Source: Octopus sinensis (taxonomy: Eukaryota). Taken from it: a stretch of DNA of 64,000 bases. Under the pieces are notes generated by a model that searched no databases, was not told where the DNA came from, and saw only the letters and a list, made by a program, of their open reading frames with translations. The stretch spans positions 15,872,001-15,936,000 of the forward strand of contig NC_043025.1 in assembly GCF_006345805.1 (NCBI RefSeq), given 5' to 3'. Made by a program: the position numbers and the translations under genes. Within the stretch, counting starts at the first letter, position 1; each line of letters opens with the position of its first letter. Shown here piece after piece: positions 25,661 to 64,000 of the stretch.

Positions 25661-25749
25661 TACATGCACCAGAATTCTGTATGGTATTATCCATATAAAT
25701 CCGTGGGGTGGTGATTATAATCAAAATAAGCAACAAGAATGACTCCGGA

Positions 25750-25840
25750 AATTTGGTATGATTGTTTCGTACTACATCATTTTATTAAATGTTGTAAGTA
25801 TTAAAACAGTTTTAAAATACTGAGCACTCATCAGCCAATT
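25750..25840 (-). ncRNA. hammerhead-like motif with branched stem II (copies at 22034-22122 and 29454-29544)
   Basis: AAUUGG-CUGAUGA-GUGCU..two hairpins..AGUAC-GAAA-CAAUCA-UA-CCAAAUU; canonical core. Confidence 0.7.
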
Positions 25841-28565
25841 ATAGAGGTTTTCCATTAATACAAAAATTTTAATATCAAGTGGCAACATTATGGAGAAGGT
25901 AGATACATAGACAAAGATGTGGATTTAAATTTAAGAACATTTGAGGTAGTGGGCCCATCAACTGAATGACTAAGATTCAGTTGTTCCAGACTGCTGAAAG
26001 GTTGTGAGAGGGAAGAACAAATGAAGGAGACAAAGATTTTCTATTTATAGAAATGGGATAAAGGGGATGTCAGAGCTCCATAAAGGAATTCATGTTGAAG
26101 ACAGCAATTACCACTACCAAATGCCAATTACTACTATTTGATGAACAGATTTGGCATTAGGAGAACTAGGTCATGTCAAGTGGTCACAATAATATTCACA
26201 GAGAATGCGGAGACCTTACAAACCCTATGCACATCATCACAACAGTTGGTCTATAAGTTCCGAGTACATTGACACGTTAGAATAAAGGAAAAATATAAAT
26301 CTAAAATTATTCATTATGAGTAGGCAAGTACTTATTAACTGGGGGGAAAACCTTATTAATCAAGTGAACATATTAGGGGTCAAAATATATACTAAGAAAG
26401 ATGGAAGAAGAAAAATCAAAGAAGGAAGAAATTCGTAGGTTAGTAGAAGGTGATTAATAATATGAAGAGAGGTAATTTAGAAGAGTAAATTATTCAGATT
26501 TCATGGATAGTGAGTTGATATTAATGAATTAAAAAATAGGATCTATTGGAATAAAATTTGCTACCTGAGGATAAAGGCTAATTAGTTAGGATGAGGATAG
26601 CTGTGTGAAAAAGTGTGTCACACCTTAGCGGTTGAGAGAAACTGTGGAAGAGGTAGACCAGGAAGACCTGGGATGAGATGTTGAAGCACGACCTTCGAAC
26701 ATTAGGGACCAAGACTTTGGAAATATGATGTGCTTGAGAAGACTTGGCAAACCAAGTGAGACCATAACATGGCCTTTACCAGGGGTGTAACCAGCCCACT
26801 TATGCGTACCTTCCCTTCATTGGACACTAAACTCTGCTTGCAAAGGCCTGTTGAGACAAGTGAAATCAAAATCAATTTCAATGACGGCATCCGTTCTAGC
26901 AGGGTGCAAAGAGCACCATACGAGTGTGATCGTTGCCAGAGGGGCTAACTGGCTTCTGTGCCGGTGGCACATGAAAGGCACCATTCGAGCGTGATCGTTA
27001 CCAGCATCGCCCTACTGGCACTTGTGCCGGTGGCATGTGTAAAAAGATTCGAGCAAAGTTGTTGCCAGTACTGCCTGACTGACCCCCATGCCAGTGGCAC
27101 GTAAAAAGCACCCACTACACTCTTGGAGTGGTTGGTGTTAGGAAGGGCATCCAGCTGTAGAAACTCTGCCAGATCAAGATTGGAGCCTGGTGCAGCCATC
27201 TGGTTCGCCAGCTCTCAGTCAAATCGTCCAACCCATGCTAGCATGGAAAGCAGACGTTAAACAATGATGATATATACACACATATTTGCATATATATCGA
27301 TATATAGAAATATATATATATATATATACAAATATATGCATGTGTGTGTGTGTATGAGTGGATGTGTGGTAAGTAGCTTGCTTACGAACCACATGGTTCC
27401 GGGTTCAGTCCCACTGCATGGCACCTTGGTAAAGTGTCTTCTGCTATAGCCTCGGGCCGACCAAAGCCATGTGAGTGGATTTGGTAGACGGAAACTGAAA
27501 GAAGCCCGTCGTATATATGTATATATATATGTGTATGTTTGTGTGTTGTGTTTGCCCCCCTCACCCAACATCGCTTGACAACCGATGCTGGTGTGTTTAT
27601 GTCCCCGTAACTTAGCGGTTCGGCTAAGACTGATAGAATAAGTACTAGGCTTACAAAGAATAAGTCCTGAGGTCGATTTCCTCGACTAAAGGCGGTGCTC
27701 CAGCATGGCCACAGTCAAATGACTGAAACAAATGAATGAATAAAAAATATAATTCTGTGATTTGTAACCTCAACACAGGAGAGTCTCTTTTTCAAGGATG
27801 GACTTTATGAAATTTTACTCATCATACATTGAAGGACAAATCTTTCAATTTACAATTTAATATAGTGGAACATTTAGTATATGTGTGTGTGACAAAACAC
27901 GGATTTCAGAAAAATGACCAGCTAAGCGATTTTAACTTTCAACCTCATCCATTCATATTTTTATGCGTAGATTCGTAACCCTAACCCCTTCCCCCTCGTT
28001 CTCTATTATCTATTTCTCTATCTTGTAAACATGGCACCGATAGCTTCCTGTCTGTCTTAAGATCTTGCATTTTTCTATTCCTCTTTTATTTCAGGTTTAT
28101 CCCTTCGTTATTCCATTCTCCCGAATTCCCTACAAAAATATTCTTTCTTCCTTAACGTCTGACCACCTAAGGCTCTGACCCCACCCCCTCTGACCCACTG
28201 TCTCTCTCTTTCGACTTAGCACTGCGGTTTTCATTCAATTAAATTATGTTTTCCTCAAATCCCAAGTTTCAACTTTCAACTCTATCTCACGATTCGGCAT
28301 TGGCTGTTTCAGTAATTTTTGTTGCAGAGAATTCCCTACGAATAATCTTCTCCCTCGTGTCTGTCCCTCAACCTCGTTGCTCCTTCGCGGTGCGCCCGCC
28401 CGCCCTCCCACCCCCTCCACCAATACCGGAAGTTTCTACCTCTGTCTTACATGGCTATCCCCCCCCCCCACGAATACCCCCACCGGCACCCCTATGTAGG
28501 GTTTATTGTGATCATATAGCGCAAAAACTGTGAAATGTATGCAGGTTGTAGTCTAGAGTCTCAGT

Positions 28566-29370
28566 ATGAAATCTGGCAAATGCAAGCTTTCCTTTCAGGT
28601 ACATGACACGGCTGTCCCTCATCCCAGGGTCTCAGAGGCCCACACCTCCCACGCCCTCAGAGTTGGCACACTCAATGTTGGCACATTGAAAGGTAGGTGT
28701 GGAGAGCTGCTTGAACGGAGACGTGTAGATTTATGCTGCATCCAAGAAGTAAAGGTGGAGAGGAGGTTCCTCACAGGCAAGGAACACAGGTACAAGATTT
28801 TCTGGGCAGGGAACACTGATGGGGTCGGGGGCGTGGGTATGCTTCTTGCGGAGAAATGGGTAGATAAGGTAATCGAGGTAGTCAGAGTAAGTGACAGAGT
28901 ACTTAAGATTAGATTAGTGCTTCACCATAGGTCAGCTACCATCATCTCGGCATATGCCCCTCAACCAGGCTACCGGAAGGACAGAAAGATCAATTCTATG
29001 ACACCCTATTGCGGACTACCTCGTTGACAAATGACAGTGACCTTCTCTTTGTGGCAGGTGATTTCAATGGACATGTCGGGGGCTTCCATGGCGTTCATGG
29101 AGGTTACGGTTTTGGCTCTCGCAATGAGGAGGGAACCAGGCTGCTGGAGTTCTGCGATGCAAATGACCTTATGATTTGCAATACCAGCTTCAGGAAACCA
29201 CCTCTCACCTAGTCACCTACCGTTCTGGCAGACACACTAGCCAGATTGACTACATCCTAGCCAGAAAGCGGGAAAGAGGGCTGCTTATAAATGCCAAAAC
29301 CTTCCCAGGCGAAGAATGTACTCCTCAACAAAGATTAGTAGTTAACGACTTCAGGATCAGAGCTAAATAC
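28566..29370 (+). pseudogene. RTE APE endonuclease, copy 3 (frameshifted)
   Basis: Duplicate of the 21148 ORF. Confidence 0.88.
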
Positions 29371-33134: not shown

Positions 33135-36100
33135 GTGCTGGTGGCACGTAAAAAGCACCATCCGATCGTGGCCGTTGCCAGCCTGGCCTGGCCCCTGTGC
33201 CCGTGGCACGTAAAAAGCACCATCCGATTGTGGCCGTTGCCAGCCTGGCCTGGCCCCTGTGCCGGTGGCACGTAAAAAGCACCATCCGATTGTGGCCGTT
33301 GCCAGCCTGGCCTGGCCCCTGTGCCCGTGGCACGTAAAAAGCACCATCCGATCGTGGCCGTTTGCCAGCCTGGCCTGGCCCCTGTGCCCGTGGCACGTAA
33401 AAAGCACCATCCGATTGTGGCCGTTTGCCAGCCTGGCCTGGCCCCTGTGCCCGTGGCACATAAAAAGCACCATCCGATTGTGGCCGTTGCCAGCCTGGCC
33501 TGGCCCCTGTGCTGGTGGCACGTAAAAAGCACCATCCGACCGTGGCCGTTTGCCAGCCTCGTCTGGCCCCTGTGCCGGTGGCACGTAAAAAGCACCATCC
33601 GATCGTGGCCGTTTGCCAGCCTGGCCTGGCCCCTGTGCCCGTGGCACGTAAAAAGCACCATCCGATCGTGGCCGTTTGCCAGCCTGGCCTGGCCCCTGTG
33701 CCCGTGGCACGTAAAAAGCACCATCCGATCGTGGCCGTTTGCCAGCCTGGCCTGGCCCCTGTGCCCGTGGCACGTAAAAAGCACCATCCGATTGTGGCCG
33801 TTGCCAGCCTGGCCTGGCCCCTGTGCTGGTGGCACGTAAAAAGCACCATCCGATTGTGGCCGTTGCCAGCCTGGCCTGGCCCCTGTGCCCGTGGCACGTA
33901 AAAAGCACCATCCGATCGTGGCCGTTTGCCAGCCTGGCCTGGCCCCTGTGCCGGTGGCACATAAAATGCACCATCCGATCATGGCCGTTTGCCAGCCTCG
34001 CCTGGCCCCTGTGCCCGTGGCACATAAAAAGCACCATCCGACCGTGGCCGTTTGCCAGCCTGGCCTGGCCCCTGTGCCGGTGGCACATAAAATGCACCAT
34101 CCGATCATGGCCGTTTGCCAGCCTGGCCTGGCCCCTGTGCCGGTGGCACATAAAATGCACCATCCGACCGTGGCCGTTTGCCAGCCTGGCCTGGCCCCTG
34201 TGCCGGTGGCACGTAAAAAGCACCATCCGATCATGGCCGTTTGCCAGCCTCGCCTGGCCCCTGTGCCCGTGGCACATAAAATGCACCATCCGATCATGGC
34301 CGTTTGCCAGCCTCGCCTGGCCCCTGTGCCCGTGGCACATAAAATGCACCATCCGATCATGGCCGTTTGCCAGCCTCGCCTGGCCCCTGTGCCGGTGGCA
34401 CGTAAAAAGCACCATCCGATCATGGCCGTTTTCCAGCCTGGCCTGGCCCCTGTGCTGGTGGCACATAAAATGCACCATCCGATCATGGCCGTTTGCCAGC
34501 CTGGCCTGGCCCCTGTGCCGGTGGCACGTAAAAAGCACCATCCGATCATGGCCGTTTGCCAGCCTGGCCTGGCCCCTGTGCCCGTGGCACATAAAAAGCA
34601 CCATCCGATCATGGCCGTTTGCCAGCCTGGCCTGGCCCCTGTGCCGGTGGCACGTAAAAAGCACCATCCGATTGTGGCCGTTTTCCAGCCTGGCCTGGCC
34701 CCTGTGCCGGTGGCACGTAAAAAGCACCATCCGACCGTGGCCGTTTGCCAGCCTGGCCTGGCCCCTGTGCCGGTGGCATGTAAAAAGCACCATCCGACCG
34801 TGGCCGTTTGCCAGCCTGGCCTGGCCCCTGTGCCGGTGGCATGTAAAAAGCACCATCCGACCGTGGCCGTTTGCCAGCCTGGCCTGGCCCCTGTGCCGGT
34901 GGCATGTAAAAAGCACCATCCGATCCGACCGTGGCCGTTTTCCAGCCTGACCTGGCCCCTGTGCCGGTGGCATGTAAAAAGCACCATCCGACCGTGGCCG
35001 TTTTCCAGCCTGACCTGGCCCCTGTGCCGGTGGCATGTAAAAAGCACCATCCGATCGTGGCCGTTGCCAGCCTGGCCTGGCCCCTGTGCAGGTGGTACGT
35101 AAAAAGCACCATCCGATTGTGGCCGTTTTCCAGCCTGGCCTGGCCCCTGTGCCGGTGGCATGTAAAAAGCACCATCCGACCGTGGCCGTTTGCCAGCCTG
35201 GCCTGGCCCCTGTGCCGGTGGCACATAAAAAGCACCATCCGATCATGGCCGTTTGCCAGCCTCGCCTGGCCCCTGTGCCGGTGGCATGTAAAAAGCACCA
35301 TCCGATCGTGGCCGTTTGCCAGCCTCGCCTGGCCCCTGTGCCGGTGGCATGTAAAAAGCACCATCCGACCGTGGCCGTTTGCCAGCCTGCCTGGCCCCTG
35401 TGCCGGTGGCATGTAAAAAGCACCATCCGACCGTGGCCGTTTGCCAGCCTGGCCTGGCCCCTGTGCCGGTGGCATGTAAAAAGCACCATCCGACCGTGGC
35501 CGTTTGCCAGCCTGGCTGGCCCCTGTGCCGGTGGCATGTAAAAAGCACCATCCGACCGTGGCCGTTTTCCAGCCTGACCTGGCCCCTGTGCCGGTGGCAT
35601 GTAAAAAGCACCATCCGACCGTGGCCGTTTTCCAGCCTGACCTGGCCCCTGTGCCGGTGGCACATAAAAAGCACCATCCGACCGTGGCCGTTTTCCAGCC
35701 TGACCTGGCCCCTGTGCCGGTGGCATGTAAAAAGCACCATCCGATCGTGGCCGTTTGCCAGCCTGGCCTGGCCCCTGTGCAGGTGGTACGTAAAAAGCAC
35801 CATCCGATTGTGGCCGTTTTCCAGCCTGGCCTGGCCCCTGTGCCGGTGGCATGTAAAAAGCACCATCCGACCGTGGCGTTTGCCAGCCTGGCCTGGCCCC
35901 TGTGCCGGTGGCATGTAAAAAGCACCATCCGACCGTGGCCGTTTTCCAGCCTGACCTGGCCCCTGTGCCGGTGGCATGTAAAAAGCACCATCCGACCGTG
36001 GCCGTTTTCAGCCTGACCTGGCCCCTGTGCGGTGGCATGTAAAAAGCACCATCCGATCGTGGCCGTTTGCCAGCCTGGCCTGGCCCCTGTGCAGGTGGTA

Positions 36101-39100
36101 CGTAAAAAGCACCATCCGATTGTGGCCGTTTTCCAGCCTGGCCTGGCCCCTGTGCCGGTGGCATGTAAAAAGCACCATCGACCGTGGCCGTTGCCAGCCT
36201 GGCCTGGCCCCTGTGCCGGTGGCACATAAAAAGCACCATCCGATCGTGGCCGTTTGCCAGCCTCGCCTGGCCCCTGTGCCGGTGGCATGTAAAAAGCACC
36301 ATCCGATCGTGGCCGTTTGCCAGCCTCGCCTGGCCCCTGTGCCGGTGGCATGTAAAAAGCACCATCCGACCGTGGCCGTTTGCCAGCCTGGCCTGGCCCC
36401 TGTGCCGGTGGCATGTAAAAAGCACCATCCGACCGTGGCCGTTTGCCAGCCTGGCCTGGCCCCTGTGCCGGTGGCATGTAAAAAGCACCATCCGACCGTG
36501 GCCGTTTGCCAGCCTGCCTGGCCCCTGTGCGGTGGCATGTAAAAAGCACCATCCGACCGTGGCCGTTTTCCAGCCTGACCTGGCCCCTGTGCCGGTGGCA
36601 TGTAAAAAGCACCATCCGACCGTGGCCGTTTTCCAGCCTGACCTGGCCCCTGTGCCGGTGGCATGTAAAAAGCACCATCCGACCGTGGCCGTTTTCCAGC
36701 CTGACCTGGCCCCTGTGCCGGTGGCATGTAAAAAGCACCATCCGATCGTGGCCGTTTGCCAGCCTGGCCTGGCCCCTGTGCAGGTGGTACGTAAAAAGCA
36801 CCATCCGATTGTGGCCGTTTTCCAGCCTGGCCTGGCCCCTGTGCCGGTGGCATGTAAAAAGCACCATCCGACCGTGGCCGTTTGCCAGCCTGGCCTGGCC
36901 CCTGTGCCGGTGGCACATAAAAAGCACCATCCGATCGTGGCCGTTTGCCAGCCTCGCCTGGCCCCTGTGCCGGTGGCATGTAAAAAGCACCATCCGATCG
37001 TGGCCGTTTGCCAGCCTCGCCTGGCCCCTGTGCCGGTGGCATGTAAAAAGCACCATCCGATCGTGGCCGTTTGCCAGCCTCGCCTGGCCCCTGTGCCGGT
37101 GGCATGTAAAAAGCACCATCCGACCGTGGCCGTTTGCCAGCCTGGCCTGGCCCCTGTGCCGGTGGCACATAAAATGCACCATCCGATCATGGCCGTTTGC
37201 CAGCCTGGCCTGGCCCCTGTGCCGGTGGCACATAAAAAGCACCATCCGACCGTGGCCGTTTGCCAGCCTGGCCTGGCCCCTGTGCCGGTGGCACATAAAA
37301 AGCACCATCCGATCGTGGCCGTTTGCCAGCCTCGCCTGGCCCCTGTGCCGGTGGCATGTAAAAAGCACCATCCGATCGTGGCCGTTTGCCAGCCTCGCCT
37401 GGCCCCTGTGCCGGTGGCACGTAAAAAGCACCATCCGATCGTGGCCGTTTGCCAGCCTGGCCTGGCCCTGTGCCGGTGGCACGTAAAAAGCACCATCCGA
37501 TTGTGGCCGTTTTCCAGCCTGGCCTGGCCCTGTGCCGGTGGCATGTAAAAAGCACACCATCCGACCGTGGCCGTTTGCCAGCCTGGCCTGGCCCCTGTGC
37601 CGGTGGCACATAAAAAGCACCATCCGATTGTGGCCGTTTGCCAGCCTGGCCTGGCCCTGTGCCCGTGGCACATAAAAAGCACCATCCGATCGTGGCCGTT
37701 TGCCAGCCTGGCCTGGCCCCTGTGCGGTGGCACGTAAAAAGCACCATCCGACCGTGGCCGTTTGCCAGCCTGGCCTGGCCCCTGTGCCGGTGGCATGTAA
37801 AAAGCACCATCCGACCGTGGCCGTTTGCCAGCCTGGCCTGGCCCCTGTGCCGGTGGCATGTAAAAAGCACCATCCGACCGTGGCCGTTTGCCAGCCTGGC
37901 CTGGCCCCTGTGCCGGTGGCATGTAAAAAGCACCATCCGACCATGGCCGTTTGCCAGCCTGGCCTGGCCCCTGTGCCGGTGGCACATAAAAAGCACCATC
38001 CGATCGTGGCCGTTTGCCAGCCTCGCCTGGCCCCTGTGCCGGTGGCATGTAAAAAGCACCATCCGACCATGGCCGTTTGCCAGCCTGGCCTGGCCCCTGT
38101 GCCGGTGGCATGTAAAAAGCACCATCCGACCGTGGCCGTTTGCCAGCCTGGCCTGGCCCCTGTGCCGGTGGCATGTAAAAAGCACCATCCGACCATGGCC
38201 GTTTGCCAGCTGGCCTGGCCCCTGTGCCGGTGGCATGTAAAAAGCACCATCCGACCATGGCCGTTTGCCAGCCTGGCCTGGCCCCTGTGCCGGTGGCATG
38301 TAAAAAGCACCATCCGACCGTGGCCGTTTGCCAGCCTGGCCTGGCCCCTGTGCCGGTGGCATGTAAAAAGCACCATCCGACCATGGCCGTTTGCCAGCCT
38401 GGCCTGGCCCCTGTGCCGGTGGCATGTAAAAAGCACCATCCGACCGTGGCCGTTTGCCAGCCTGGCCTGGCCCCTGTGCCGGTGGCACGTAAAAAGCACC
38501 ATCCGATTGTGGCCGTTTTCCAGCCTGGCCTGGCCCCTGTGCCGGTGGCATGTAAAAAGCACCATCCGATAATGGCCGTTTGCCAGCCTGGCCTGGCCCC
38601 TGTGCCGGTGGCACGTAAAAAGCACCATCCGATAATGGCCGTTTGCCAGCCTCGCCTGGCCCCTGTGCCCGTGGCACGTAAAAAGCACCATCCGACCGTG
38701 GCCGTTTGCCAGCCTCGCCTGGCCCCTGTGCCAGTGGCACGTAAAAAGCACCATCCGATCGTGGCCGTTTGCCAGCCTGGCCTGGCCCCTGTGCCAGTGG
38801 CACGTAAAAAGCACCATCCGATCGTGGCCGTTTGCCAGCCTCGCCTGGCCCCTGTGCCCGTGGCACGTAAAAAGCACCATCCGACCGTGGCCGTTTGCCA
38901 GCCTCGTCTGGCCCTGTGCCGGTGGCACGTAAAAAGCACCATCCGATCGTGGCGTTTGCCAGCCTGGCCTGGCCCCTGTGCCCGTGGCACGTAAAAAGCA
39001 CCATCCGATCGTGGCCGTTTGCCAGCCTGGCCTGGCCCCTGTGCCCGTGGCCGTAAAAAGCACCATCCGATCGTGGCCGTTTGCCAGCCTGGCCTGGCCC

Positions 39101-39500
39101 CTGTGCCCGTGGCACGTAAAAAGCACCATCCGATTGTGGCCGTTGCCAGCCTGGCCTGGCCCCTGTGCTGGTGGCACGTAAAAAGCACCATCCGATCGTG
39201 GCCGTTTGCCAGCTGGCCTGGCCCTGTGCCGGTGGCACATAAAAAGCACCATCCGATCGTGGCCGTTTGCCAGCCTGGCCTGGCCCCTGTGCCAGTGGCA
39301 CGTAAAAAGCACCATCCGATTGTGGCCGTTGCCAGCCTCGCCTGGCACCTGTGCTGGTGGCACGTAAAAAGCACCATCCGATTGTGGCCGTTTGCCAGCC
39401 TCGTCTGGCACCTGTGCTGGTGGCACGTAAAAAGCACCATCCGATTGTGGCCGTTTGCCAGCCTCGCCTGGCACCTGTGCCGGTGGCACGTAAAAAGCAC
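33135..39500 (+). repeat. 63-bp GC-rich minisatellite, ~100 copies, derived from the RTE 3' UTR unit
   Basis: Unit GTGCCGGTGGCACGTAAAAAGCACCATCCGATCGTGGCCGTTTGCCAGCCTGGCCTGGCCCCT; runs directly into the RTE terminal domain. Confidence 0.98.
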
Positions 39501-39672
39501 CCACTACACTCACGGAGTGGTTGGCGTTAGGAAGGGCATCCAGCCGTAGAAACATTGCCAGATAAGACTGGAGCCTGGTGCAGCCTTCTGGCTTCCCAGA
39601 CCCCAGTTGAACCGTCCAACCCATGCCAGCATGGAAAGCGGACGCTAAACGATGATGATGATGATGAGGATG
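39501..39672 (+). mobile_element. RTE terminal 3' domain capping the minisatellite
   Basis: CCACTACACTC..GGAAGGGCATCCAGCCGTAG..CATGGAAAGCGGACG..(GAT)n. Confidence 0.9.
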
Positions 39673-40530: not shown

Positions 40531-41074
40531 TGATTTTAGTGTTATGAATGCGGGATTTTCTACACCTGGAGGATTTCAAAGTATGACCGGAATCTGACAG
40601 TGTGGATAGCCTAAAGCTTGGGTTTTGTGTTGTATTGGAAACACCTCTTTCTACCCTGCCATACATACACACACACACACACACACAACGAGCCTGGTGC
40701 AGCCTTCTGGCTCGCCAGTCCTCAGTCAAACCATCCAACCCATGCCAGCATGAAAAGCAGACATTAAACGATGACGATGATGATGATGCAGTTGAAATTT
40801 ATAGGGAAACAAAAGACAAAGACAGGTGATGAGCAACAAACAAGTGTATTTGTTTGATGCTTGGGAAAAATGAAAAAGTCTTTTATATTTTGAGCCCACA
40901 CTCTTCAACAGGAAAGAATAGAGAGCAGGGTATTAAGTAGTACCAACATTGCTAGAAATAAGACTCTTATTTCAAGCAATGCTGGTACCACTCTGTACCC
41001 TTGGTCACTTTAGTGACATCTATGAATTTGCCTTTAGGCTTCTAAATTACTTATAAGCCACCCATATTATTTGA

Positions 41075-44048
41075 GTTCTGTGATGCAACACTAACTTCAG
41101 GAAGTCAGACAGCCACCTGATTAACCTACCAATCAGGGACTCTGCTAGCCAGATTGATTTCATCCTTACCAGACAGCTGGACGCAGGGTTGCTCTTAAAT
41201 GCAAAGACCCTCCCAGGTGAAGAATGTATCCCCCAGCATAGGCTAGTCATTAGGGACTTTAGGCTCGAGGCCAGAAGGATACCAAGAAGCAGACCAATCC
41301 AGAAAAGAAGGATTTGGAAGCTAAAGAACCCTTCACATGTTCAGAGATTTAGGGACATCCTCATCAAGAAATTTGATGAGAGGGAGGAGGAGCTACAGAC
41401 ATCGGACATAGAAGGTAGCTGGAAATTCCTATGGGACAGCTTGCTGAGTGCCACAGACGAAATATGCAGATGGTGCAAATCCATTCCAGCCCTAGACTTA
41501 CGTGGTGGTAGAATAGTACGGTAGACAAAGCCATTAGAGCAAAGAAACAGGCCTGGAAAGCCTGGAAGGATGGGGGTAGCAGGGAACTGTACCAAGTAGC
41601 CGAAAGGGAGGTTGGGCGGCAGGTATACATAGCCAAGAGCGAAGCGGAAAAGAAGTTTGGCAATGTCCAGCGACATGAGGATCAAAGAACTAAGGTATTT
41701 CAGATTACTAGACAGTGTGTGAGAGAAAATTGTGATGTCACAGGAGAGAAGTGTGTTCGAATGGATGATGGGGCACTTGCTTTTACTGTTGGTGAAAAGA
41801 AAGAGGCTTAGAGAAGCCATTATGAAAGACTGCTGAATGTGGAGAAGGAATGGGAGGAGGAGAGCCTGCCAAATGTTGACCCAGTAAAAGGAGCAGCTAT
41901 CCAAATAGGCAGATCCCTAATAGATAAAGCAATTAAGGGTATGAAACCAGGAATCACTGCTGAGATGCTTAAAGCATCGGGTGGTGTGGGCTATGGCCTA
42001 GTCACCCGCATTGTAAACCAGGTAGTTCATAATGGAGTCATACCCAATGACTGGCATATCAGCACCATAGTCAACTGCTACAAGGTTAAAGGTAATGCTC
42101 TAGATAGCAATAACTACAAGGGTATCAAACTGCTGGATCAGGTGAGGAAGTTTCACAGAGAGGGTCATAGCCAATCTCATCAAGGAGAGAGTCTGCTTAG
42201 ATGAGATGCAGTTTGGTTTTGTTCTAGATAGAAGCACTACTGATGCCATATCCCTGGTCCGACAACTGCAGGAGAAGTACCTAGCTAAAGATAGACCCCT
42301 CTACTTAGCTTTTGTGGATTTTGAGAAAGCCTTTGACAGGGTCCCCTGATCCCTTATCTGGTGGGCAATGCAGAAACTGGAGATTGAAGAATGGTTAATA
42401 AGGGCTGTACAGGCCCTATACAGAGAGGCTGTTAGTAAGGTTAGGATTGGCAATGAGTATACTGAAGAATTCCAGGTAGAAGTAGGGGTCCACCAAATCT
42501 CACCCCTCAGTCCCCTTTTATTCATCATAGTCCTCCAGGCAATATCAGAGGAATTCAAGATGGGTTGCCCCTGGGAGCTCCTCTGTGCAGATGACCTGGC
42601 TCTCATAGCAGAATCACTACCAGAACTAGAAAAGAAATTTCGGGTGTGGAAGCAAGGGTTAGAATCAAAGGGCCTTAGAGTAAATATAGCAAAGACCAAA
42701 GTTATAGTAAGCAGAAAGGCGAACTCAGCACACACACCCTCGGGCAGGTGGCCCTGCTCGATCTGTAGGAAAGGTGTAGGTAGAAACTCCATAAGATGCA
42801 CCCAATGTAAGCTATGGACGCATAAGAGGTGCAGCAACATCAAAGGGAAATTAACTGATAAGATAGCTTTCATGTGCAGCAGATGCACAGGGACAATAGA
42901 CACCACAGATACTCAGAAAACAGATTCCATCACACTCCAGGGGAAGAAACTAGAAGTAGTTGATAGTTTCCGCTACCTGGGTGACCAAGTTAGTAGTGGA
43001 GGTGGATGCTCAGAGAGTATCACCACTAGAATACGAATAGCCTGGGCAAAGTTCAGAAAGCTCCTACCCCTACTGGTGACAAAGGGTCTCTCACTCAGAG
43101 TGAAAGGTAGACTGTATGATGCATGTGTGCAAACTGCCCTGTTTCACGGTAGTGAAACATGGGCTGTGACTGCAGAGGACATACGTAGACTTGAAAGAAA
43201 TGAAGCTAGCATGATCCGCTGGATGTGTAATGTCAGTGTCCATGCATGACAGAGTGTAAGTGCCCTGAGAGAAATGCTGGACATAAGAAGCATCAGATGT
43301 GGTGTGCAAGAGCGACGCTTGCGATGGTATGGTCATGTACTGCGGATGGATGAGGAGAGATGTGTGAAGAAGTGCCACTCCCAAACAGTTGAAGGTATCA
43401 GGGAGAGAGGTAGACCTAGGAAGACATGGGATGAGGTAGTCAAGCATGACCTCCGAGCGTTGGGCCTCACTGAGGCAATGGCAAAGGACCGAAATCTCTG
43501 GAGATATGCTGTGACTGCAAAGACCCAGGCTACTTCCTGCACCAGTTCCGCATAGCCCCTGCCCATTCAAAGTACCTTGGATTCAAGAACATCCCGCTGT
43601 GCTTGAGGAGACCTATTGAGTCAAGTACATGAACATCAAAATAAATATCAATGGAAATAGTAGTTGTCATACCTGTGCCAATGGCACATAAAAGCGCCAT
43701 CCAAACGTGGCCGATGCCAGCGCCGCCTCGACTGGCTTCTGTGCCAGTGGGACATAAAAAGCACCATCCGAATGTGGCCGATGCCAGCGCCGCCCTGGCT
43801 GGCTTCTGTGCCGGTGGCACGTTAAAAGCACCAACCGATCATGGCCGATGCCGGACCCCCCTGGCACCTGTGCAGGGGGCACGTAAAAAGCACCCACAAC
43901 ACTCGCGGAGTGGTCGGCGTTAGGAAGGGCATCCAGCTGTAGAAACACTGCCAGATCAGACTGGTGCAGCCCCTGGCTTCCCAGACCCCGGTCGAACCGT
44001 CCAACACGTGCTAGCACGGAAAACGGACGTTAAACGATGATGATGATG
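41075..44048 (+). mobile_element. RTE-clade LINE, 5'-truncated and decayed (second subfamily)
   Basis: End of APE (SQIDFIL), RT with LLCADD, PHD-like finger, RLRWYGHV, tail and (GAT)n. Confidence 0.94.
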
Positions 44049-49847: not shown

Positions 49848-50050
49848 AGGCAGTAAGGTGGCAGAATTGTTAGCACGCTGGATAAAATGCTTAGTGTTGT
49901 TTCACCTGTTACTCTGTTCTGAGTTCAAATTTGCCGAGATCGACTTAGCCTTTTGTCCTTTTCAGGTCGATAAAATAAGTACCGTTGAGATCAATGTAAT
50001 CAACTCATCTCCTCCCCCACAACTGCCGCCCTTGTGGCAAAATTTGAAAT
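49848..50050 (+). mobile_element. tRNA-derived SINE, second family (head also at 51119-51210)
   Basis: TGGCAGAATTG and GAGTTCAAATT boxes; homologous to 53117-53528. Confidence 0.75.
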
Positions 50051-50377
50051 CATCATCATCATCACCACCATCACCACCACCACCACCACCACCACCACCA
50101 TCATCATCATGATCACCACCACCACCACCACCACCACCACTACCATCATCATCATCATCACCACCAACACCACCACCACATCATCATCATGATCACCACC
50201 ACCACACCACCCACCACACCATCATCATCATCATCACCACCACCACCACCACCATCATCATTATTATTATTATTATTTTACTATTATTATTACTATTATT
50301 ATTATTATTACTTATTATTATTTTATTACTACTATTATTATTATTATTATTATTATATTATTATTTTACTATTATTC

Positions 50378-51118: not shown

Positions 51119-53116
51119 AAGCAGTGAGCTGGCAGAATTGTCAGGATGCTTGATGAAATGCTTACTGGTATTTCGTTTGTAGCTATGTTCTGAGTTCAGA
51201 TTCTGCCAAGTCACTTCCATCGACATTTCATCTGGAGTCTTTTCTTGGAGGATTTGTTCAATATCCTCAATCACAAAATGGCTTGCATTTTCTCTGTCCA
51301 TTTTAACTTTCTTAGCAACTGGTTTGTTTTCAATTTCAACAGATGGTATCTGCTTACATCTGAAATCTTCTGACATGACTCACTTTAAATGTATCGTCAA
51401 TTCTTTTTCAGTTTTTTCTTCTAACCAGAATAATTTTTTTGTTCCACACAGAATTTGCATGGATTTCTTCTTCTTATCATTATTGAGTGAGAGATCAGTG
51501 TATGCCATCAAAGTGACACTGGGGTAAAATATACGAAGCCCAGTATACCCATCATGACTACCTGTCTGATAAGGGTACACTAGGCACATGCATCACAACC
51601 ATATGTGCGTGACATGGTGGTCTCATATCAAGATAAACAGCACATGACCTTGCAGCTGGGGCCCACTTATAATTTTCTTCTGGTCGGGTAGCCCATCCCA
51701 CTCAAAGGGTCTCTGAATAAGGATTGTTGAAGGATGTTGAACAAACCACCCATGTTTCCAAAGGTGAATTATTCAAACCCCAAAGAATCCCTCTCAACAC
51801 ATGGCTATGATGCTCCCCCACTACTTCTGCTCATGATCAGAGATGCACATATCGTCAGCCACTAAGGGACATGCTCAACTGGTTAAGGTCAAACAACTGA
51901 CAAGCAAATCTGTGGTATTGAGCAGAATATTTGCTGTAGGCCATCTTTTATACCAAGACAAAACAATGTACATGATAACACTTCCAATCAGTTAAGATCA
52001 GAAGCCATGAGAGCCACTGCCTGGTATCAAAGTGACACTGGGGTAAAATATACAAAGCCCAGGATACCCATCATGACTACCCATCTGATAAGGGTATACC
52101 AGGTACATGCATCACAACCATATGTGCACGACATGATTTCATATCAAGATAAATAGCACATGACCTTGCAGGTGGGGCCCAGTTAGAACTTTCCTCTGAT
52201 TGGGTAACCCATCCCACTCAAAAGGTCCCTGAATAAGGGTTGTTTAAGGATGTTGAATGAAACACCCATGTTACCAGAGGTAAATTATTCAAACCCCAAA
52301 GAATTCCTCCCAACACATGGCCATGATGCTCCCCCACTACTTCTACTCATGATCAGAGATGCACATATCGTCAGCCACTAAGGGACATGCTCAACTGGTT
52401 AAGGTCAAACAACTGACAAGCAAATCTGTGGCACTGAGCAGAATATTTGCTGCATCCCATCAAAATGCTGCAGGTAGTACCAATTACTGTTATTACTGGT
52501 AGCGCTGCTATATATAGTGACCTGACTTAAATCCTTCAAATTATTTTTCACTGTGTGTAGTTCAGTTCTATGTTAGAGTTCCAGTTTTATCAGACAGTTT
52601 TTCTTTTCAAAATCTTTTTCACTGCGTGAGCCACAAATCCTCGTCGCCACTGATATGTCCCATTGTGACGACATATTCCATCGTCTCTGTGGAACTGGTC
52701 CGAATAGCATGCCTTCATCGAGTGATCTTACTGATTGAGACAGTCCACTATTTATTACTGATTGAGACCAGTCCACTACTCACCTGAGGGGTGTCCACCA
52801 CAACAGATTTCTTGTGGTGCTCTTATTTCCATTGTATTGAATATGTTTTACGTAGGACGTGTGTGCTTCTTTGCTGGTGAAATCCAACTTCATCCAAGTC
52901 TGTTGCAAGGATTACGCCATTGTTTTTACATTGTGACAGAAACTGAAGGCCATTTGACCACTGTTGCATAGAAGCATTTGGTGCTTGTATTCAGCTGGTT
53001 AATGACAATACATCACACATAGGGCCCCATATGGTAAAGATGTGGATGGGAAGAATGTGGGTAGAGGGGGATATGCTAGCAACAACACAAATAACTACGC
53101 AGAAACAGCCATAGTA

Positions 53117-53528
53117 AGGCGGAGAGCTGGCAGAAACGTTAGCACAAAATGCTTAGCAGTATTTCGTCTGCCGTTATGTTCTGAGTTCAAATTCCGCCGA
53201 GGTCGACTTTACCTTTCATCCTTTTGGGGTCGATTAAATAAGTACCAGTTACACATTGGGGTGGATATAATCAACTTAATCCTTTTGTCTGTCTTTGTTT
53301 GTCCCCTCTGTGTTTAGCCCCTTGTGGGTAGTAAGGAAATAGGTATTTCGTCTGCCGTTATGTTCTGAGTTCAAATTCCGCCGAGGTGGACTTTGCCTTT
53401 CATCCTTTTGGGGTCGATTAAATAAGTACCAGTTACACATTGGGGTGGATATAATCAACTTAATCCCTTTGTCTGTCTTTGTTTGTCCCCTCTATGTTTA
53501 GCCCCTTGTGGGTAGTAAAGAGATAAGA
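53117..53528 (+). mobile_element. tRNA-derived SINE with ~185-bp internal tandem duplication
   Basis: TGGCAGAAACG and GAGTTCAAATTCC boxes; body plus tail GCCCCTTGTGGGTAGTAA present twice. Confidence 0.85.
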
Positions 53529-54443
53529 AACACCATGGTTGAAACAAGAACAAGAACAACAAATATTCTTAAAAGAGAAAAGAAACATGGTCATCCCTTA
53601 CCCAAGGGACCTTATCTTATCGCCCATCACTTGTTATGCACTCATAAATTAAATTGGTTGTATGCAAATGAGTTCATAACTGGGGTCTGGTTGGCTGGCT
53701 GCTGTGCATTTGTGCTGGTTGCCGTTGCCATGGCATGAGTTTTTGGACCACAAAGTTTTCCACCTCAAAATAGGGATAAACGAGTCCTGCCAGGTGGAGT
53801 GGCAGTTCTCAGCAGCACACCACAGTTATTACCATGAGGCGTGGCTGAGTACCCCACTTGTCCTGGGGTAAGTGGACCATCGACCCTTCCCCTCCATCTA
53901 CACTGCTTTACCTCACATTTTCTCTTCCTTTTCTCTCTTTTTATTTCTTGGAACTTTTCAATCTGTCCGACAGATTTTTTAAATAATTTTTTTTTAACTA
54001 AACACTTTGAAACTTTGGAAACTGGTAAAACAAAGTTTACTCTTAACGTTTTTGACAAAATTTTTGTATTTTAGAAGTTATTTTGTGTTAAAGTTGTCGT
54101 ATTTGGGTAATTTAAACCAATCAATGACGTGTATTCAGCTGAAGAAAATTACTGCTGCTGTTTGTGAACAACAACTTCTGGGTCCACTCCCCTAACAAAA
54201 CCCTTCTTTAATAACCAGAGGTGTTTTTATAGCAACATAGGTTGTGATTGCACGACCTGCTAGAAAAAGTAGCCCATCATATATTACATAGAAAGAAGCC
54301 CATCGTATATTATATATATATATGTCTGTGTTTGTCCACTGTCCCCGTTTGACAACCGATGCTGATATGTTTACATCCCTTTAACTTAGTGGTTCGGCAA
54401 AAGAGATTGATAGAATAAGTACTGCTTGTTAATCATTAATCAT

Positions 54444-56720
54444 TGTTGGCATCCTTTTTGTCTCGGGAGAAAATGGAGTTGCGCATAAAGTAGTCCAGTC
54501 CGGCTTTTACATTTCATGTCCTGATACATTTCCTGCTGTGGCTGTGTAGTCCTATCCTGGACAAACACTCCCTCCGGCAGGCACCGCAAATGTAGCGAAG
54601 ACTTTGCCTGGCTGGTTGTAACGTCATAGTTTCTTGTTGACATATTTTCTTGTAGTTCCATTTCTCCTCTCTCTGTCACTCCCTCTTTTACGGTACGTCG
54701 ACAATCTCCACGGTTGCTGGCAACTGCTTGACAGTTGGTAATATTGATGTTGCAGGCATTTATAACCCTTTTGCAAACATCCTTGTAACGTAAGAGCGGT
54801 CTTCCCACAGACCTAGTGCCCCTAGCAAGCTCTCCGTAGAATATGTCCTTGGGGATTCTGCCATCTTGAATACGGCTAACATGTCCAAGCCATCTCATAC
54901 GTGTGAGGACTGCAAACATGCTTAGTATTCCTGCTTGCTTGAGGACATCTTTGTTGGGGAGATGGTTATGCCATCTGATGCGAAGGATTTTCCGGAGGCA
55001 GCGCAAATGAAATATATTTAGGCGACGCTCTTGGCGTGTGAATGGCGTCCAAGTCTCACTTCCATACAGTAGAGTGCTAAGTACACATGCCTGGTAAATC
55101 TTCATTTTTGTGTTCTTGGTCAGCTTAATGTTGACCCATGCTCGTTTCGAGAGTTGGGCCATCACAGCAGCTGCCTTGCCAATGCGTATATTGAGCTCAA
55201 CATCAAGGGATAGGTTGTAGGTGACGGTAGAGCCAAGATAGGTAAATGTCTCCACCTCCTGTAATCTGTGGTCTCCAATATGTGTGTTTCGGATGTCCGG
55301 AGTAGCCTGACCCATGATGTTGGTCTTCTTGAGGCTGATAGCTAAGCCAAAATCGTTACATGCCTGCTCACAACAGCTGATGAGCCTTTTTAGGGCTTCT
55401 TCTGTGTGTGATACCAGAGCAGCATCATCAGCAAATAGCATCTCCTTGATCAGGATGCTTCTTATTTTGGTCTTGCCACGCAGGCGTGAGAGATTGAACA
55501 GTTTCCCGTCACTTCTACTCTGCAGAAACACTCCATCATCTGATGTCTGAAAGGCATGTGAGAGCAGCAGCGAGAAGAAGATGCCAAATAATGTAGGAAC
55601 AAGGACACAACCTTGCTTTACCCCATTTTTTATTTGGAAAGCGGCTGATGTTGAACCATTGTGCTGTATGGTTCCTTGCATATCATCATGGAAAGATTTG
55701 ATGATCCTCAGCAGCTTTGGTGGACATCTGTTTTTTTGGAGCAGGATGAAGAGGCCTTTTCTACTTACCAAGTCAAAGGCCTTTGTCAGATCAATGAAGG
55801 CCATATATAATGGCATTTCTGCTCTCTGGACTTCTGAAGTTGGCGTATGGAGAATATCATGTCAATAGTTGATCAGCTTCTTCTAAAGCCACACTGCGAT
55901 TCCGGATAGATTCGAGAAGCAAGTAGTTGTAGCCTGGCCAGGATAACGCGAGCAAAGGTCTTTCCAACAGTGCTTAGAAGAGATATTCCACAGTAATTGT
56001 TACAATCACCACGGTCACCTTTGTTTTTGTAAAGCGTAATGATGTTAGCATCCCGCATATCCTGAGGGACTGTACCCTCTTCCCAGCACTGACACAGAAT
56101 CTCATGAAGGTGCCGAAGCAGGATAGTGTTTTTGCCGGCTTTGATGATCTCTGAGGGGATGCCCTCTTTTCCTGGAGCCTTGTTACTTGCTAGGGAGTCA
56201 ATAGCCTTGGTGAGCTCTGCTATAGATGGTGGACTGTGAAGTTCTCACATGACTGGCAAGATCTTGACACTCTCGATTGCAGCCTCAGCTACTGTAGTCT
56301 CCCGTGAGTAGAGATCCTGGTAGTGCTCCACCCATCTATCCATTTGCTTGCTTTGATCCCTGATGAGATCTCCAGTAGTTGATTTCAGAGGGGCTGACTT
56401 GGTTGCGGATGGACCGAGGGCCTTCTTCAAACCGGAATACTTCCCACGGGTGTCGCCCCTGTCAGCAGCTGACTGGATACTCTGACAGATTTCCTGCCAA
56501 TACCTATTTGCACAGCGTCTGGCTGTCAGTTGGGTTTTATTTCTTGCCTTTCTGAGTTCTTCGAGTGACTTTGTAGAAGAGTCACTCTTGTATTGCATCA
56601 GAGCTGCACGCTTTGCTTCGATAACTGGCTCCAGCTCTGAGAGCCCAGCATTGAACCAATCTGGGTTTTGCCTTTCTCTCATGCCGAAAGTATCCATTGA
56701 TGTGGTATACAAAGCTTCCC
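54444..56720 (-). mobile_element. BovB-like RTE LINE, 5'-truncated, 19-bp TSD
   Basis: FIDLTKAFD, GVKQGCVL, MLFADD, LLYGSETW in ORF 54440-55816; CGAGAC..AAGGATGCC end; CTTGTTAATCATTAATCAT at 54425-54443 and 56721-56739. Confidence 0.93.
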
Positions 56721-56894
56721 CTTGTTAATCATTAATCATAATAATACTTTTATTGTAGCTTTTAATTTTGTTGATAAAAATAAATGAGTATTGTACGTAT
56801 TTTCTTTTTAACTGTTGACTTATTTTTGCACCACTCTGTATAATCATGTGACTTATTATACTCAGGTAATTAGATCTATCTATCTATCTATCTA

Positions 56895-57804: not shown

Positions 57805-57845
57805 ACTAGCATTAAAGACCCGTCGTTCCGGGTCATAGTGCTAGT
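57805..57845. other. 41-bp hairpin with CTAG at both ends (Helitron-terminus-like)
   Basis: ACTAGCA..GACCCG tcgttc CGGGTC..TGCTAGT within TA-rich tracts. Confidence 0.5.
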
Positions 57846-57989: not shown

Positions 57990-58282
57990 TAGCCCATCTC
58001 TTGTAATTTCGATCAATTGTATCTTGTCCTCCCTCTTGTATAGAAGTGTGGCTACAATCCAGCCTACCTCTACTTGGGGTATTAAAAATTTTTTTGTGGG
58101 ACGTACTACGTCCCAGATATAAAGGTAAAAATAAAATATTTCCACTTTGCAAGTTCAAGTCGAGTACTCCTTTGCGCGCTCCATTGATTCGAACCTTGCT
58201 TCTATTGTGGCGAATTTACCGCCTCTGATTAGATACCTTTCATAGTCGCACCAAGACACTTTTCGAAGGTGCTTTCCTCCAT
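57990..58282 (-). pseudogene. decayed, diverged homologue of the array's Gag/ORF1-like gene
   Basis: Across frameshifts FEKCLGATMK/YLIRGGKFATIEARF../LPLYLGR..KIFNTP/QVEVGWIVATLL aligns colinearly with IEKCLGDIMG..YVSRGKKFGTVEVRC..WPSYKGR..KIPNIPPEVKTEWLATAIL. Confidence 0.75.
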
Positions 58283-58524
58283 GTGATTTTATTACTACCC
58301 ACAAGGGGCGAACATAGATGGGACAGTACAATCGGGGAACTTAAAATAAGAAAGCCAATGACAAAAAAAGGAAAAAATAATAGTAAAAAATGACATATGA
58401 AAGAATATTTACAATGAGATGTAAATGCCCACTCGATCCCCGGAATCGAGAGGTTACATTTTCGTCACATATATTTCACAATATTTTCTTTTTCCTCTTC
58501 TTTCTTCTCTCTCTTCTCACAATT

Positions 58525-59925
58525 CTATACGTATTCCATAATACCTTTCAATTCTCTAAAGTCAATCACTGAGCCCTCAGGCAGCCGCTCTCTCACTCGA
58601 ACACTCGTGTAAAATATTACACTCTCTCCGGCAGCTCTGAGGAACTCAGCGACTCTTTCTTGGGGATTAGAGCAGTCTCCTGCCACTGATCGGTCATCCT
58701 GTTGACCCATATATGTCCCTCCGTATTACATGTCAAGTCTTTCATTCAGGGCAGAAATGGAAGGTTATTAACTTGTAGTAGCAGTAATCTTGTTTCCGTC
58801 CTACGTTTTCCCTCGTTTTTCTTTTCGGGCTTATTTCTTCCTTGTTCTCCTCTCTTTGTTTCTCTCTTTCTCTCTTTTTGCTTTCTTTTCTTTCTTCTTC
58901 CTTCTCTTGTCTTTTTGGTTCTTTGTCTGTTCTCTCTTTCTCTCGTGTTTTATGTTCCTTTTCTTTTTCTTTTTGTGTGCCGTCTTTTCTTTTCGTTTGA
59001 TCTGATCTTTCTCTTGTTTTTTTCCTGTTGGTTCTTTTTCCTTTTTTTTTTCCTGACTGTTTGGTTCTTTCTATTTCTTTCTTTTCTTTTATTTCTTTTT
59101 CCTTCATTGACTTATTATTTCCTTTCTCTTGTTGTTTTGTTTCCTTTTCTATGTTTTCTTTTTCATTTACCGTATTCTTTTTTCTTCAAGTTCCTGCTCG
59201 CACTCCGCTACGAATTCGTATAACGGGCACTCTTTTTTAATGTGCCCCCTTGTCCCGCACAAGTAACAGTTTGGTTTTCTTCCTCTACAATTACACTGAG
59301 GGTTTTCTCATCTTCAATTTCTATTCTGTAGGGGAACCTTTCAATGTCCTCTTTTGTGGCCATCAAACACAGTTCTACCCCATATCCTCTCCAGTTTACC
59401 GCGTTGGACTCCTTAAAGGATTCCACCTCCACTTCCTCTTCTGCTGCTCCTAGAATAGCTGTTGCCAGCCATTCTGTTTTCACTTCTGGGGGTATATTCG
59501 GGATTTTAACCCGGACCCCTCTTCTTCCTTGTATGAGGGCCACATTATAAATGTTTCGCTCTTAGTACAGTGGTAGCCAGTGAGGCTGCAATTTCTTCCG
59601 TTGCACATCTCACCTCCACCGTACCAAATTTCTTGCCTCTACTCACGTAGGTCGATTTCCCCATTATGTCTCCCAGACATTTTTCGATTTCGGCTATCTC
59701 CACTCTTGCCAGTTTCTTCGTATTTTTGTCTTGGGTTCTATATGTCACTGTCTTGTTTTCTTTGTCCTCTTTTGCTTTCGCGGGGGGGATTAGCTTCACG
59801 CTATCACCCTCCCTTTTGAAGAGCTTTTCATATTCTTTGAGTTTACTCTTCTCAAAGAAAACATCCTTCACGATTATCGACGAATCATTATTTTTCTTTC
59901 CCGTGACCCCCGCGTAAGTCGCCAT
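58525..59925 (-). CDS. Gag/ORF1-like zinc-knuckle protein, copy 1 (frameshifted, ~466 aa reconstructed)
   Basis: ORF pieces 59545-59925, 59208-59543, 58742-59107 and 58525-58710 tile one reading. Confidence 0.7.
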
Positions 59926-60301
59926 GACTAGAGGGTCAATTCACCTTCTTCGGAAGGTTTCCACACGTGGAGGCAAACACCTCGCGCGATAATAATCAAT
60001 TTACACAACAAAATTTCACTGTCTAGTCACAGATAACAACACGTATAGCTTGGAGCCATGTGATTTTATTATTACCCACAAGGGGCGAACATAGAGAGGA
60101 CAATACAATCAGGGAACTTAAAATAAGAAAGCGAATGACAAGAAAAGGAAAAAATAAAAAGTAAAAAATGACATATGAAAGAATATTTACAATGAGATGT
60201 AAATGCCCACTCGATCCCCGGAATCGAGAGGTTACATTTTCGTCACATAATTTCACAATATTTTCTTTTTTCTCTTCTTTCTTCTCTCTCTTCTCACAAT
60301 T

Positions 60302-61698
60302 CTATACGTATTCCATAATAGCTTTCAATTCTCTAAAGTCAATCACTGAGCCCTCAGGCAGCCGCTCTCTCACTCGAACACTCGTGTAAAACATTACACT
60401 CTCTCCGGCAGCTCTGAGGAACTCAGCGACTCTTTCTTCGGGGATTAGAGCAGTCTCCTGCCACTGATCGGTCATCCTGTTGACCCATATATGTCCCTCC
60501 GTATTACATGTCAAGTCTTTCATTTCGGGGCAGAAATGGAAGGTTATTAACTTGTAGAAGCAGTAATCTTGTTTCCGTCCTACGTTTTCCTTCGTTTTTC
60601 TTTTCGGGCTTATTTCTTCCTTGTTCTCCTCTCTTTGTTTCTCTCTTTCTCTCTTTTTGCTTTCTTTTCTTTCTTCTTCCTTCTCTTGTCTTTTTGGTTC
60701 TTTGTCTGTTCTCTCTTTCTCTCGTGTTATGTTCCTTTTCTTTTTCTTTTTGTGTGCCGTCTTTTCTTTTCGTTTGATTCTGATCTTTCTCTTGTTTTTT
60801 TCTGTTGGTTCTTTTTCTTTTTTTTTTCCTGACTCTGTTTTGGTTCTATTTCTTTCTTTTCTTTTATTTCTTTTTCCTTCATTGACTTATTATTCCTTTC
60901 TCTTGTTGTTTTGTTTCCTTTTCTATGTTTTCTTTTTCATTTACCGTATTCTTCTTTTCTTCAAGTTCCTGCTCGCACTCCGCTACGAATTCGTATAACG
61001 GGCACTCTTTTTAATGTGCCCCCTTGTCCCGCACAAGTAACAGTTTGGTTTTCTTCCTCTACAATTACACTGAGGGTTTTCTCATCTTCAATTTCTATTC
61101 TGTAGGGGAACCTTTCAATGTCCTCTTTTGTGGCCATCAAACACAGTTCTACCCCATATCCTCTCCAGTTTACCGCGTTGACTCCTTAAAGGATTCCACC
61201 TCCACTTCCTCTTCTGCTGCTCCTAGAATAGCTGTTGCCAGCCATTATTTTCACTTCTGGGGGTATATTCGGGATTTTAACCCGGACCCCTCTTCTTCCC
61301 TTGTATGAGGGCCACATTATAAATGTTTCCGCTCTTAGTACAGTGGTAGCCAGTGAGGCTGCAATTTCTTCCGTTGCACATCTCACCTCCACCGTACCAA
61401 ATTTCTTGCCTCTACTCACGTAGGTCGATTTCCCCATTATGTCTCCCAGACATTTTTCGATTTCGGCTATCTCCACTCTTGCCAGTTTCTTCGTATTTTT
61501 GTCTTGGGTTCTATATGTCACTGTCTTGTTTTCTTTGTCCTCTTTTGCTTTCGCGGGGGGGATTAGCTTCACGCTATCACCCTCCCTTTTGAAGAGCTTT
61601 TCATATTCTTTGAGTTTACTCTTCTCAAAGAAAACATCCTTCACGATTATCGACGAATCATTATTTTTCTTTCCCGTGACCCCCGCGTAAGTCGCCAT
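60302..61698 (-). CDS. Gag/ORF1-like protein, copy 2 (frameshifted)
   Basis: Same N-terminus MATYAGVT and C-terminus ..RELKAIMEYV. Confidence 0.7.
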
Positions 61699-62074
61699 GA
61701 CTAGAGGGTCAATTCACCTTCTTCGGAAGGTTTCCACACGTGGAGGCAAACACCTCGCGCGATAATAATCAATTTACACAACAAAATTTCACTGTCTAGT
61801 CACAGATAACAACACGTATAGCTTGGAGCCATGTGATTTTATTATTACCCACAAGGGGCGAACATAGAGAGGACAATACAATCAGGGAACTTAAAATAAG
61901 AAAGCGAATGACAAGAAAAGGAAAAAATAAAAGTAAAAAATGACATATGAAAGAATATTTACAATGAGATGTAAATGCCCACTCGATCCCCGGAATCGAG
62001 AGGTTACATTTTCGTCACATATATTTCACAATATTTTCTTTTTTCTCTTCTTTCTTCTCTCTCTTCTCACAATT

Positions 62075-63478: not shown

Positions 63479-64000
63479 GACTAGAGGGTCAATTCACCTT
63501 CTTCGGAAGGTTTCCACACGTGGAGGCAAACGCCTCGCGCGATATTAATCACTTTACACAACAAAATTTCAACGTCTAATCACAGATAACAACACGTATA
63601 GCTTGGAGCCGTGTGATTTTATTACTACCCACAAGGGGCGAACATAGAGGAGACAATACAATCGGGGAACTTAAAATAAGAAAGCGAATGACAAGAAAAG
63701 GAAAAAATAAAAGTAAAAAATGACATATGAAAGAATATTTACAATGAGATGTAAATGCCCACTCGATCCCCGGAATCGAGAGGTTACATTTTCGTCACAT
63801 ATATTTCACAATATTTTCTTTTTTCTCTTCTTTCTTCTCTCTCTTCTCACAATTCTATACATATTCCATAATAGCTTTCAAATCTCTAAAGTCAATCACT
63901 GAGCCCTCAGGCAGCCGCTCTCTCACTCGAACACTCGTGTAAAATATTACACTCTCTCCGGCAGCTCTGAGGAACTCAGCAACTCTTTCTTCGGGGATTA

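Follow-up and report, generated by a model that had tools for sequence, protein, structure and literature searches.

A 3′ hairpin tail shared by a SINE, ORF1-only elements and an L1-group LINE clade in Octopus sinensis

Results

A SINE and an ORF1-only array with a common 3′ end

The window analysed here is a stretch of 64,000 nucleotides of the Octopus sinensis genome (contig NC_043025.1). It holds a tandemly repeated SINE on the forward strand and an array of ORF1-only units on the reverse strand, with the following features.

49848–50051, +: older SINE copy with a second tail type (loop the same, stem different)
53101–53115, +: degenerate SINE target-site duplication (TSD) of 14–15 bp, 5′ copy, read directly; 3′ copy at 53526–53539
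53118–53341, +: full SINE unit with head, A-box-like (~53128–53140) and B-box-like (~53184–53196) motifs, central domain and LINE-type tail
53343–53525, +: second SINE unit, restarting at head position 45, 96–96.7% identical to the first, with a 184-bp period
53484–53525, +: shared 3′ tail of SINE unit 2; same tail at 53300–53341
53501–53513, +: tail hairpin of SINE unit 2, with a 4-bp stem and a 5-nt loop
57806–58278, −: 3′ half of a Helitron-like target repeat, with hairpin (57817–57834) and terminal CTAG (57806–57809); the 5′ half lies beyond the array
58279–58285, −: 7-bp TSD, repeated at 60056–60062, 61829–61835, 63609–63615 and the far end of the array
58286–60055, −: ORF1-only unit 1 (family A), tail at 58326–58286; ORF1 frameshifted after 126 aa in the assembly
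60063–61828, −: ORF1-only unit 2, frameshifted after 170 aa
61836–63608, −: ORF1-only unit 3, frameshifted after 270 aa; CCHC knuckle at aa 219–234
63616–64000, −: 3′ end of ORF1-only unit 4, which extends to G000:C29:15937389 and has an intact 466-aa ORF1

The end of SINE unit 2 (53484–53518, +) and that of array unit 1 (58326–58292, −) are identical at 32 of 35 aligned bases (E 1.5e-7 within the window), and the remaining three array unit ends in the window also match the SINE tail. An earlier note on this DNA had read this common tail correctly, together with the tandem duplication of the SINE directly after its tail and the differing end of the copy at 49848–50051. The homology is confined to the last 40–46 SINE bases. 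Since no SINE body lies upstream of the shared tail in the array unit, the array did not merely capture a SINE fragment, an outcome that the note had considered.

Elsewhere in the window, a third SINE copy, a 5′ fragment, lies directly 3′ of an (ATT)n tract (51120–51216, +). A broken RTE-type LINE fragment (54440–56724, −; RVT_1 E 5e-20) is unrelated to the tail system, and the RTE-type fragments were rejected as tail partners because no tail match adjoins them. More broken endonuclease/RT LINE pieces at 16000–29000 and 41000–43300 (+) apparently lie inside a ~3.7-kb repeated block at 19–29 kb. Positions 1–6975 and 33135–39501 contain a 20-bp satellite (352 copies) and a 63-bp minisatellite (101 copies); the 63–67 bp minisatellite unit recurs, in 2–3 copies, within a dispersed repeat.

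The tail is carried by autonomous LINEs

The array-type tail pattern has 186 exact matches genome-wide, against 0 for the reversed control. We inspected 20 tail loci, mostly isolated matches chosen among the first 100 listed: nine proved to be the end of a LINE, seven family A, four family B and none a SINE body. The genome search that the earlier note had suggested thus led to an RT-encoding LINE. Its example L079 is a 5.19-kb element with an ORF1 of 443 aa and an ORF2 of 1133 aa (endonuclease, RT, zf-RVT), the latter matching human L1 ORF2p with an E value of 3e-65. L079 and unit A are identical at 48 of 50 terminal bases; the remaining 3′ UTR is unalignable, with just two short weak matches. 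At least 150 copies match the L079 C-terminus at 87–100%, and 19 of the 150 copies scored have a frame of at least 1128 aa.

The partner LINE combines ORF1 and ORF2, an AP-type endonuclease, an RT and a C-terminal zinc motif, as L1-group elements do. In an RT tree with no curated Tx1 references among its rows, it stands beside an Argonauta protein (64%), other relatives and proteins called TX1 by their sources. It also has the target-sequence preference typical of Tx1 elements, for a Helitron site in LINE1 and for microsatellites in LINE3 and LINE4. Architecture and targeting thus make it likely that the partner LINE belongs to the Tx1 clade of the L1 group.

Four LINE families, with RTs 67–97% identical, carry the tail. 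LINE2 (RT 88% to LINE1) has the same hairpin at its 3′ end, together with the terminal bases of the SINE. LINE3 (RT 68%) and LINE4 (RT 67%) end in the hairpin with a changed stem, followed by microsatellites: LINE3 runs into (TTA)n at 28 of 30 loci and LINE4 into (TATC)n-like repeats at 29 of 30. Each of the two has at least 150 matches (LINE4, L287–L316), and LINE3 is a 5.8-kb element found in tandem pairs (L281–L286). A candidate ORF2-only partner was rejected, as the 4.3-kb LINE2 units at L116 are 5′-truncated inside ORF1; full LINE2 measures 5.4 kb. Copies of LINE1a and LINE2 at unlinked loci (L055, L078, L079; L233, L234, L227) have other recurrent 3′ flanks, which implies further multicopy targets. 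One array (L235, G000:C9:76.6 Mb) mixes 5.24-kb LINE units with 3.58-kb units in which an internal deletion has left ORF1 and half of ORF2 in place; such units may be an intermediate on the way to an ORF1-only element.

A conserved hairpin in the tail

The tail hairpin is common to the four LINE families, several ORF1-only families and three SINE tail types. Among 22 hand-picked family representatives, aligned with rows anchored on the loop and with LINE4 (6-nt loop) left out, 85 of the 88 cells of the 4-bp helix are paired, and three of the four pairs have changed on both sides; slid controls are 22–50% paired. RNAalifold predicts the same helix unprompted, so that the covariation test proposed in the earlier note came out positive. 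The signal amounts to about three independent changes in a stem of only 4 bp, and single-sequence folds frequently favour other structures. A conserved 3′ stem-loop with compensatory changes, the feature of stringent SINE–LINE pairs, is present here with a short stem and few independent events. As judged from its distribution among these sequences, the tail is native to the LINE clade and older than these families.

ORF1-only families under purifying selection

The array unit measures 1775–1782 bp and has a single ORF1-like frame of 466–468 aa with a zf-CCHC match (E 6e-5); searches of the unit for ORF2, endonuclease or RT gave no match. The frameshifts in three of the window units are possibly assembly errors. 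The ORF1 core of unit A is 37% identical to that of the LINE over 177 aa, with 21 invariant columns. A model predicted from a 14-row alignment (mean pLDDT 60; ~80–87 over most of residues 31–220) matches tandem-RRM proteins (Foldseek E 2e-5), and an ESM Atlas search returned CCHC/RRM-type clusters only. Tandem RRMs with a CCHC knuckle are an ORF1-type architecture of LINEs.

Nei–Gojobori dN/dS values, calculated over ~178 core codons from frames picked for being open, are 0.10–0.13 between families A, B and B2 (A vs B 0.10–0.11), 0.06–0.19 within A and 0.08–0.21 among the C families; the LINE1 subfamilies gave 0.03–0.07. The ORF1-only genes are under purifying selection, with dN/dS around 0.1, and the elements therefore need their own protein, which probably acts in cis. 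A role of this kind for an element's own ORF1 has been proposed for HeT-A, HAL1 and Ag-Sponge, in the account of these elements cited here (PMC5786205).

The octopus units have ORF1 only, an ORF1 homologous to that of the LINE and a 3′ end shared with an L1-group LINE, as HAL1-like elements do. Their ORF1s are closest to those of the LINE clade in the same genome, and HAL1 proper is of mammalian L1 descent; the octopus unit resembles HAL1 in the way it works without belonging to it. An old family, F (~1.7 kb; 38 matches, L351–L380), has the tail closest to that of the SINE. The autonomous LINE that the earlier note envisaged, in a three-part system with an ORF1-only parasite and a SINE, exists, but it is one of at least four LINE families, and the ORF1-only parasite likewise belongs to a set of several families.

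Arrays at a Helitron-like target

The window array sits inside a 1-kb repeat with Helitron-type ends, of which both halves were recovered, and its units are separated by the 7-bp TSD. The repeat starts with TC, ends in a 3′ hairpin followed by CTAG and then T, and has no terminal inverted repeats; these are the features of non-autonomous Helitrons. The hairpin and end lie at the expected distance in 27 of 29 loci read, and the 5′ end was read in one locus. The target site motif has 429 matches. Among the first 100 listed, 30 are filled, all at one base; in the first 30 listed, 15 are filled, nine by a LINE, five by family C and one by family A, and no SINE was found in these 15.

LINE and ORF1-only units are stacked head to tail at this single base. 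Arrays often combine LINE, A, B and C units in varying order, with a shared TSD (L071, L117, L121, L126, L129). Neither LINE nor ORF1-only units are confined to the Helitron target. At array junctions in L011, L018 and L031–L060, linkers of 15–25 nt lie between a tail and the 5′ end of the next unit; they are uniform within an array, variable between arrays and resemble the Helitron target.

The SINE and its tails

The SINE tail has 79,780 exact matches, tandem units counted. A- and B-box-like motifs were read directly in the SINE, and its head ends are complementary. An Rfam search for a tRNA in the SINE gave no match at E values up to 5 and nothing relevant otherwise, and ARAGORN, run at a lowered threshold and with no control, called a tRNA in 36 of 47 SINEs with inconsistent identities. 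The tRNA derivation implied in the earlier note is suggested by the box-like motifs and, weakly, by the tRNA scan. Like tRNA-SINEs, the element is dispersed, high in copy number, flanked by TSDs and equipped with a LINE-related 3′ tail, and from its resemblance to the octopus SINEs OK, OR1 and OR2 it probably belongs to the same group. TSDs of 10–22 bp flank 16 of 43 head-bearing copies; roughly half start with GGTA, and their start bases differ from those of the LINE. The other 27 heads have no clear TSD, many of them being unfinished tandem runs.

After 149 SINE central domains we found 72 exact type-1 stems, 13 stems of the two other tail types (same loop), four type-1 stems with a single change and 60 unclassified sequences. 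Among the LINEs recovered, none proved to be a partner for tail types 2 and 3. The majority tail matches LINE1a at 41 of 46 positions, LINE1b at 38, LINE2 at 36, LINE4 at 34 and LINE3 at 31; all of these scores beat the best of 500 shuffles, LINE3 narrowly. It matches family F at 42 of 46, including diagnostic bases that no LINE we found shares. When we looked for a LINE with the exact SINE tail, four matches led to family F, and no ORF2 lay within 1.5 kb upstream at 30 loci. Homology beyond the last 45 bases to family C or LINE1a was rejected as unconvincing (nominal p 0.01–0.05 in few of 42 comparisons).

Divergence from the majority sequence is 6.7% for the SINE, 7.6% for family F and 3.4% for family A, so that the SINE burst predates the young elements. 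Either an older LINE of the LINE1/LINE2 branch or family F may have been the source of the SINE tail. In accordance with the earlier note, the SINE shares its tail with the partner LINE, but its own mobiliser is not pinned to a young LINE found here. Speaking against young LINE1 in that role are the greater age of the SINE, its different landing sites and its F-like tail bases; a sister LINE may have served instead.

Of 92 SINE tails at loci selected by tail patterns, 44 lead into a unit that begins again at head position 45, and six into one that begins near position 17. Identity is 0.897 between adjacent units (24 pairs), barely above the 0.88 of random pairs (595 pairs). This agrees with SINE-into-SINE insertion or template jumping rather than with DNA slippage. 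The two window units break this pattern (0.965), probably through a local duplication or homogenisation. The SINE-head site is also occupied by LINE2 and family C at a few loci (L223, L224, L238).

Discussion

A LINE clade of the L1 group, likely Tx1, ends in a conserved 40–50 base tail, in which a small hairpin is followed by an AATAAA-type motif, and ORF1-only units and a SINE share this tail. The sharing suggests that these two borrow the copying enzyme of the LINE, and we regard it as quite probable that the LINE endonuclease-RT copies both. The enzyme would recognise the tail hairpin, arrays would grow through repeated insertion at a retained target, and the ORF1 protein of the half-element would package its own RNA. 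The SINE mobiliser would come from the LINE1/LINE2 branch; during the main burst it was probably an older member, perhaps a sister, that was not recovered. A fuller version of this proposal, which we offer tentatively as a possibility, is a stringent hairpin system with two tiers of parasites, in which the SINE, the dominant one of the genome, took its tail from half-LINE F and not from an autonomous LINE, and landing is set partly by flank-derived bases at the RNA 3′ end, so that one enzyme could reach the Helitron site, the SINE head and microsatellites.

The tail might instead be an RNA 3′-end signal, consisting of hairpin and polyadenylation motif, rather than an RT site; the SINE would then have acquired it once by template switching and been moved by a relaxed enzyme or another LINE clade. 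In line with this, the hairpin is followed by AATAAA or AGTAAA in LINE1–4, in SINE type 1 and in the ORF1-only families; the cited survey describes elements of the L1 group as generally relaxed (PMC3747384); and the SINE has targets unlike those of the LINE. However, no poly(A) tract follows any element end inspected, and SINE types 2 and 3 lack AATAAA. Moreover, a Pol III-type SINE needs no polyadenylation signal, yet in all three of its tail types compensatory changes have preserved the stem. We therefore consider a pure 3′-end signal unlikely.

It is less likely still that the ORF1-only arrays spread mainly as DNA, inside Helitrons and by unequal crossing over, with the tail as a relic of LINE ancestry. 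Units in one array are 97–98% identical, and some filled Helitrons have a common 5′ junction (L114, L117, L120) and element order, which shows that not all are independent insertions and points partly to whole-array copying. On the other hand, arrays vary in TSD length, in 5′ truncation and in which units they hold and in what order, and A also occurs as single copies with unrelated flanking sequence (L063, L065, L074). The ORF1 is 37% and the tail 96% identical to the LINE, a disparity that requires ongoing selection or exchange. DNA-level copying probably contributes to the arrays but cannot explain these observations. Capture of a SINE end by chance, or coincidence, is refuted by the tail on RT-encoding LINEs of four families and by a match that stops at the same point in all families without SINE body, however abundant the SINE is and although LINE-into-SINE insertions occur (L155, L238).

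Among known systems, the octopus units come close to HAL1 (half-L1), Ag-Sponge and HeT-A, ORF1-bearing non-autonomous LINEs (PMC5786205, PMC5753468). As described there, these likewise have a single ORF1 and no RT, derive from the L1 group and depend on an autonomous partner. The octopus families differ from these accounts in their independent molluscan origin, their several deep families, the lack of a poly(A) tail, an ORF1 with two predicted RRMs and a CCHC knuckle, and their site-specific mixed arrays within a Helitron-like repeat.

The crocodilian Tx1-Mar LINEs and SINEU show comparable targeting: in the published description, a Tx1-type LINE is aimed at a DNA transposon, insertions are tandem around a TSD, and the SINE is thought to be trans-mobilised (PMC4494074). 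SINEU, however, has a poly(A) end, and that description links it to the LINEs by shared targets and gives no LINE with the SINEU-1 3′ end. In octopus the link is the shared tail, and the SINE lacks the Helitron target.

L1-tailed SINEs account for only three of 58 pairs in one compilation, in maize and an alga (PMC3747384, Table 1). Maize ZmSINE2/3 with LINE1-1_ZM and Chlamydomonas SINEX-3 with L1-1_CR resemble the octopus pair in their L1-clade 3′ stem-loop, tRNA SINE and compensatory changes; as listed there, they come from a plant or an alga and include no ORF1-only third party. Loop-dependent recognition of 3′ stem-loops has been established for L2 LINEs, by the account consulted (PMC4176376). 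MetaSINEs are reported to swap tails around a common body (PMC4824008), as the octopus SINE does. The partners reported for mollusc SINEs in the sources used are CR1, CR1-Zenon, L2, Nimb and RTE (PMC11481361, PMC4758252, PMC5786205), unlike the L1/Tx1-type tail seen here. A recent octopus annotation lists 13 recently active L1-Tx1 families, in the part available not linked to SINEs.

The literature searched, with subscription papers and Repbase outside its scope, yielded no description of an animal SINE with an L1/Tx1-type tail or of this whole system. The ingredients, namely HAL1-type elements, SINE–LINE tails and Tx1 targeting, are known; their combination is seldom recorded for this LINE group in animals.

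SINEs make up ~11.6% of the genome in the genus Octopus (PMC13282606). Our analysis names a likely engine, a clade of the L1/Tx1 group, for a SINE that numbers at least 80,000 units. To judge from sequence, this clade would show stringent 3′ recognition by L1-group LINEs of an animal, a case relevant to the question whether the relaxed, poly(A)-based recognition discussed in the cited survey (PMC3747384) is derived. With a young intact LINE, ORF1-only families under selection and natural stem variants, both the recognition of the tail and the role of the passenger ORF1 are open to experiment.
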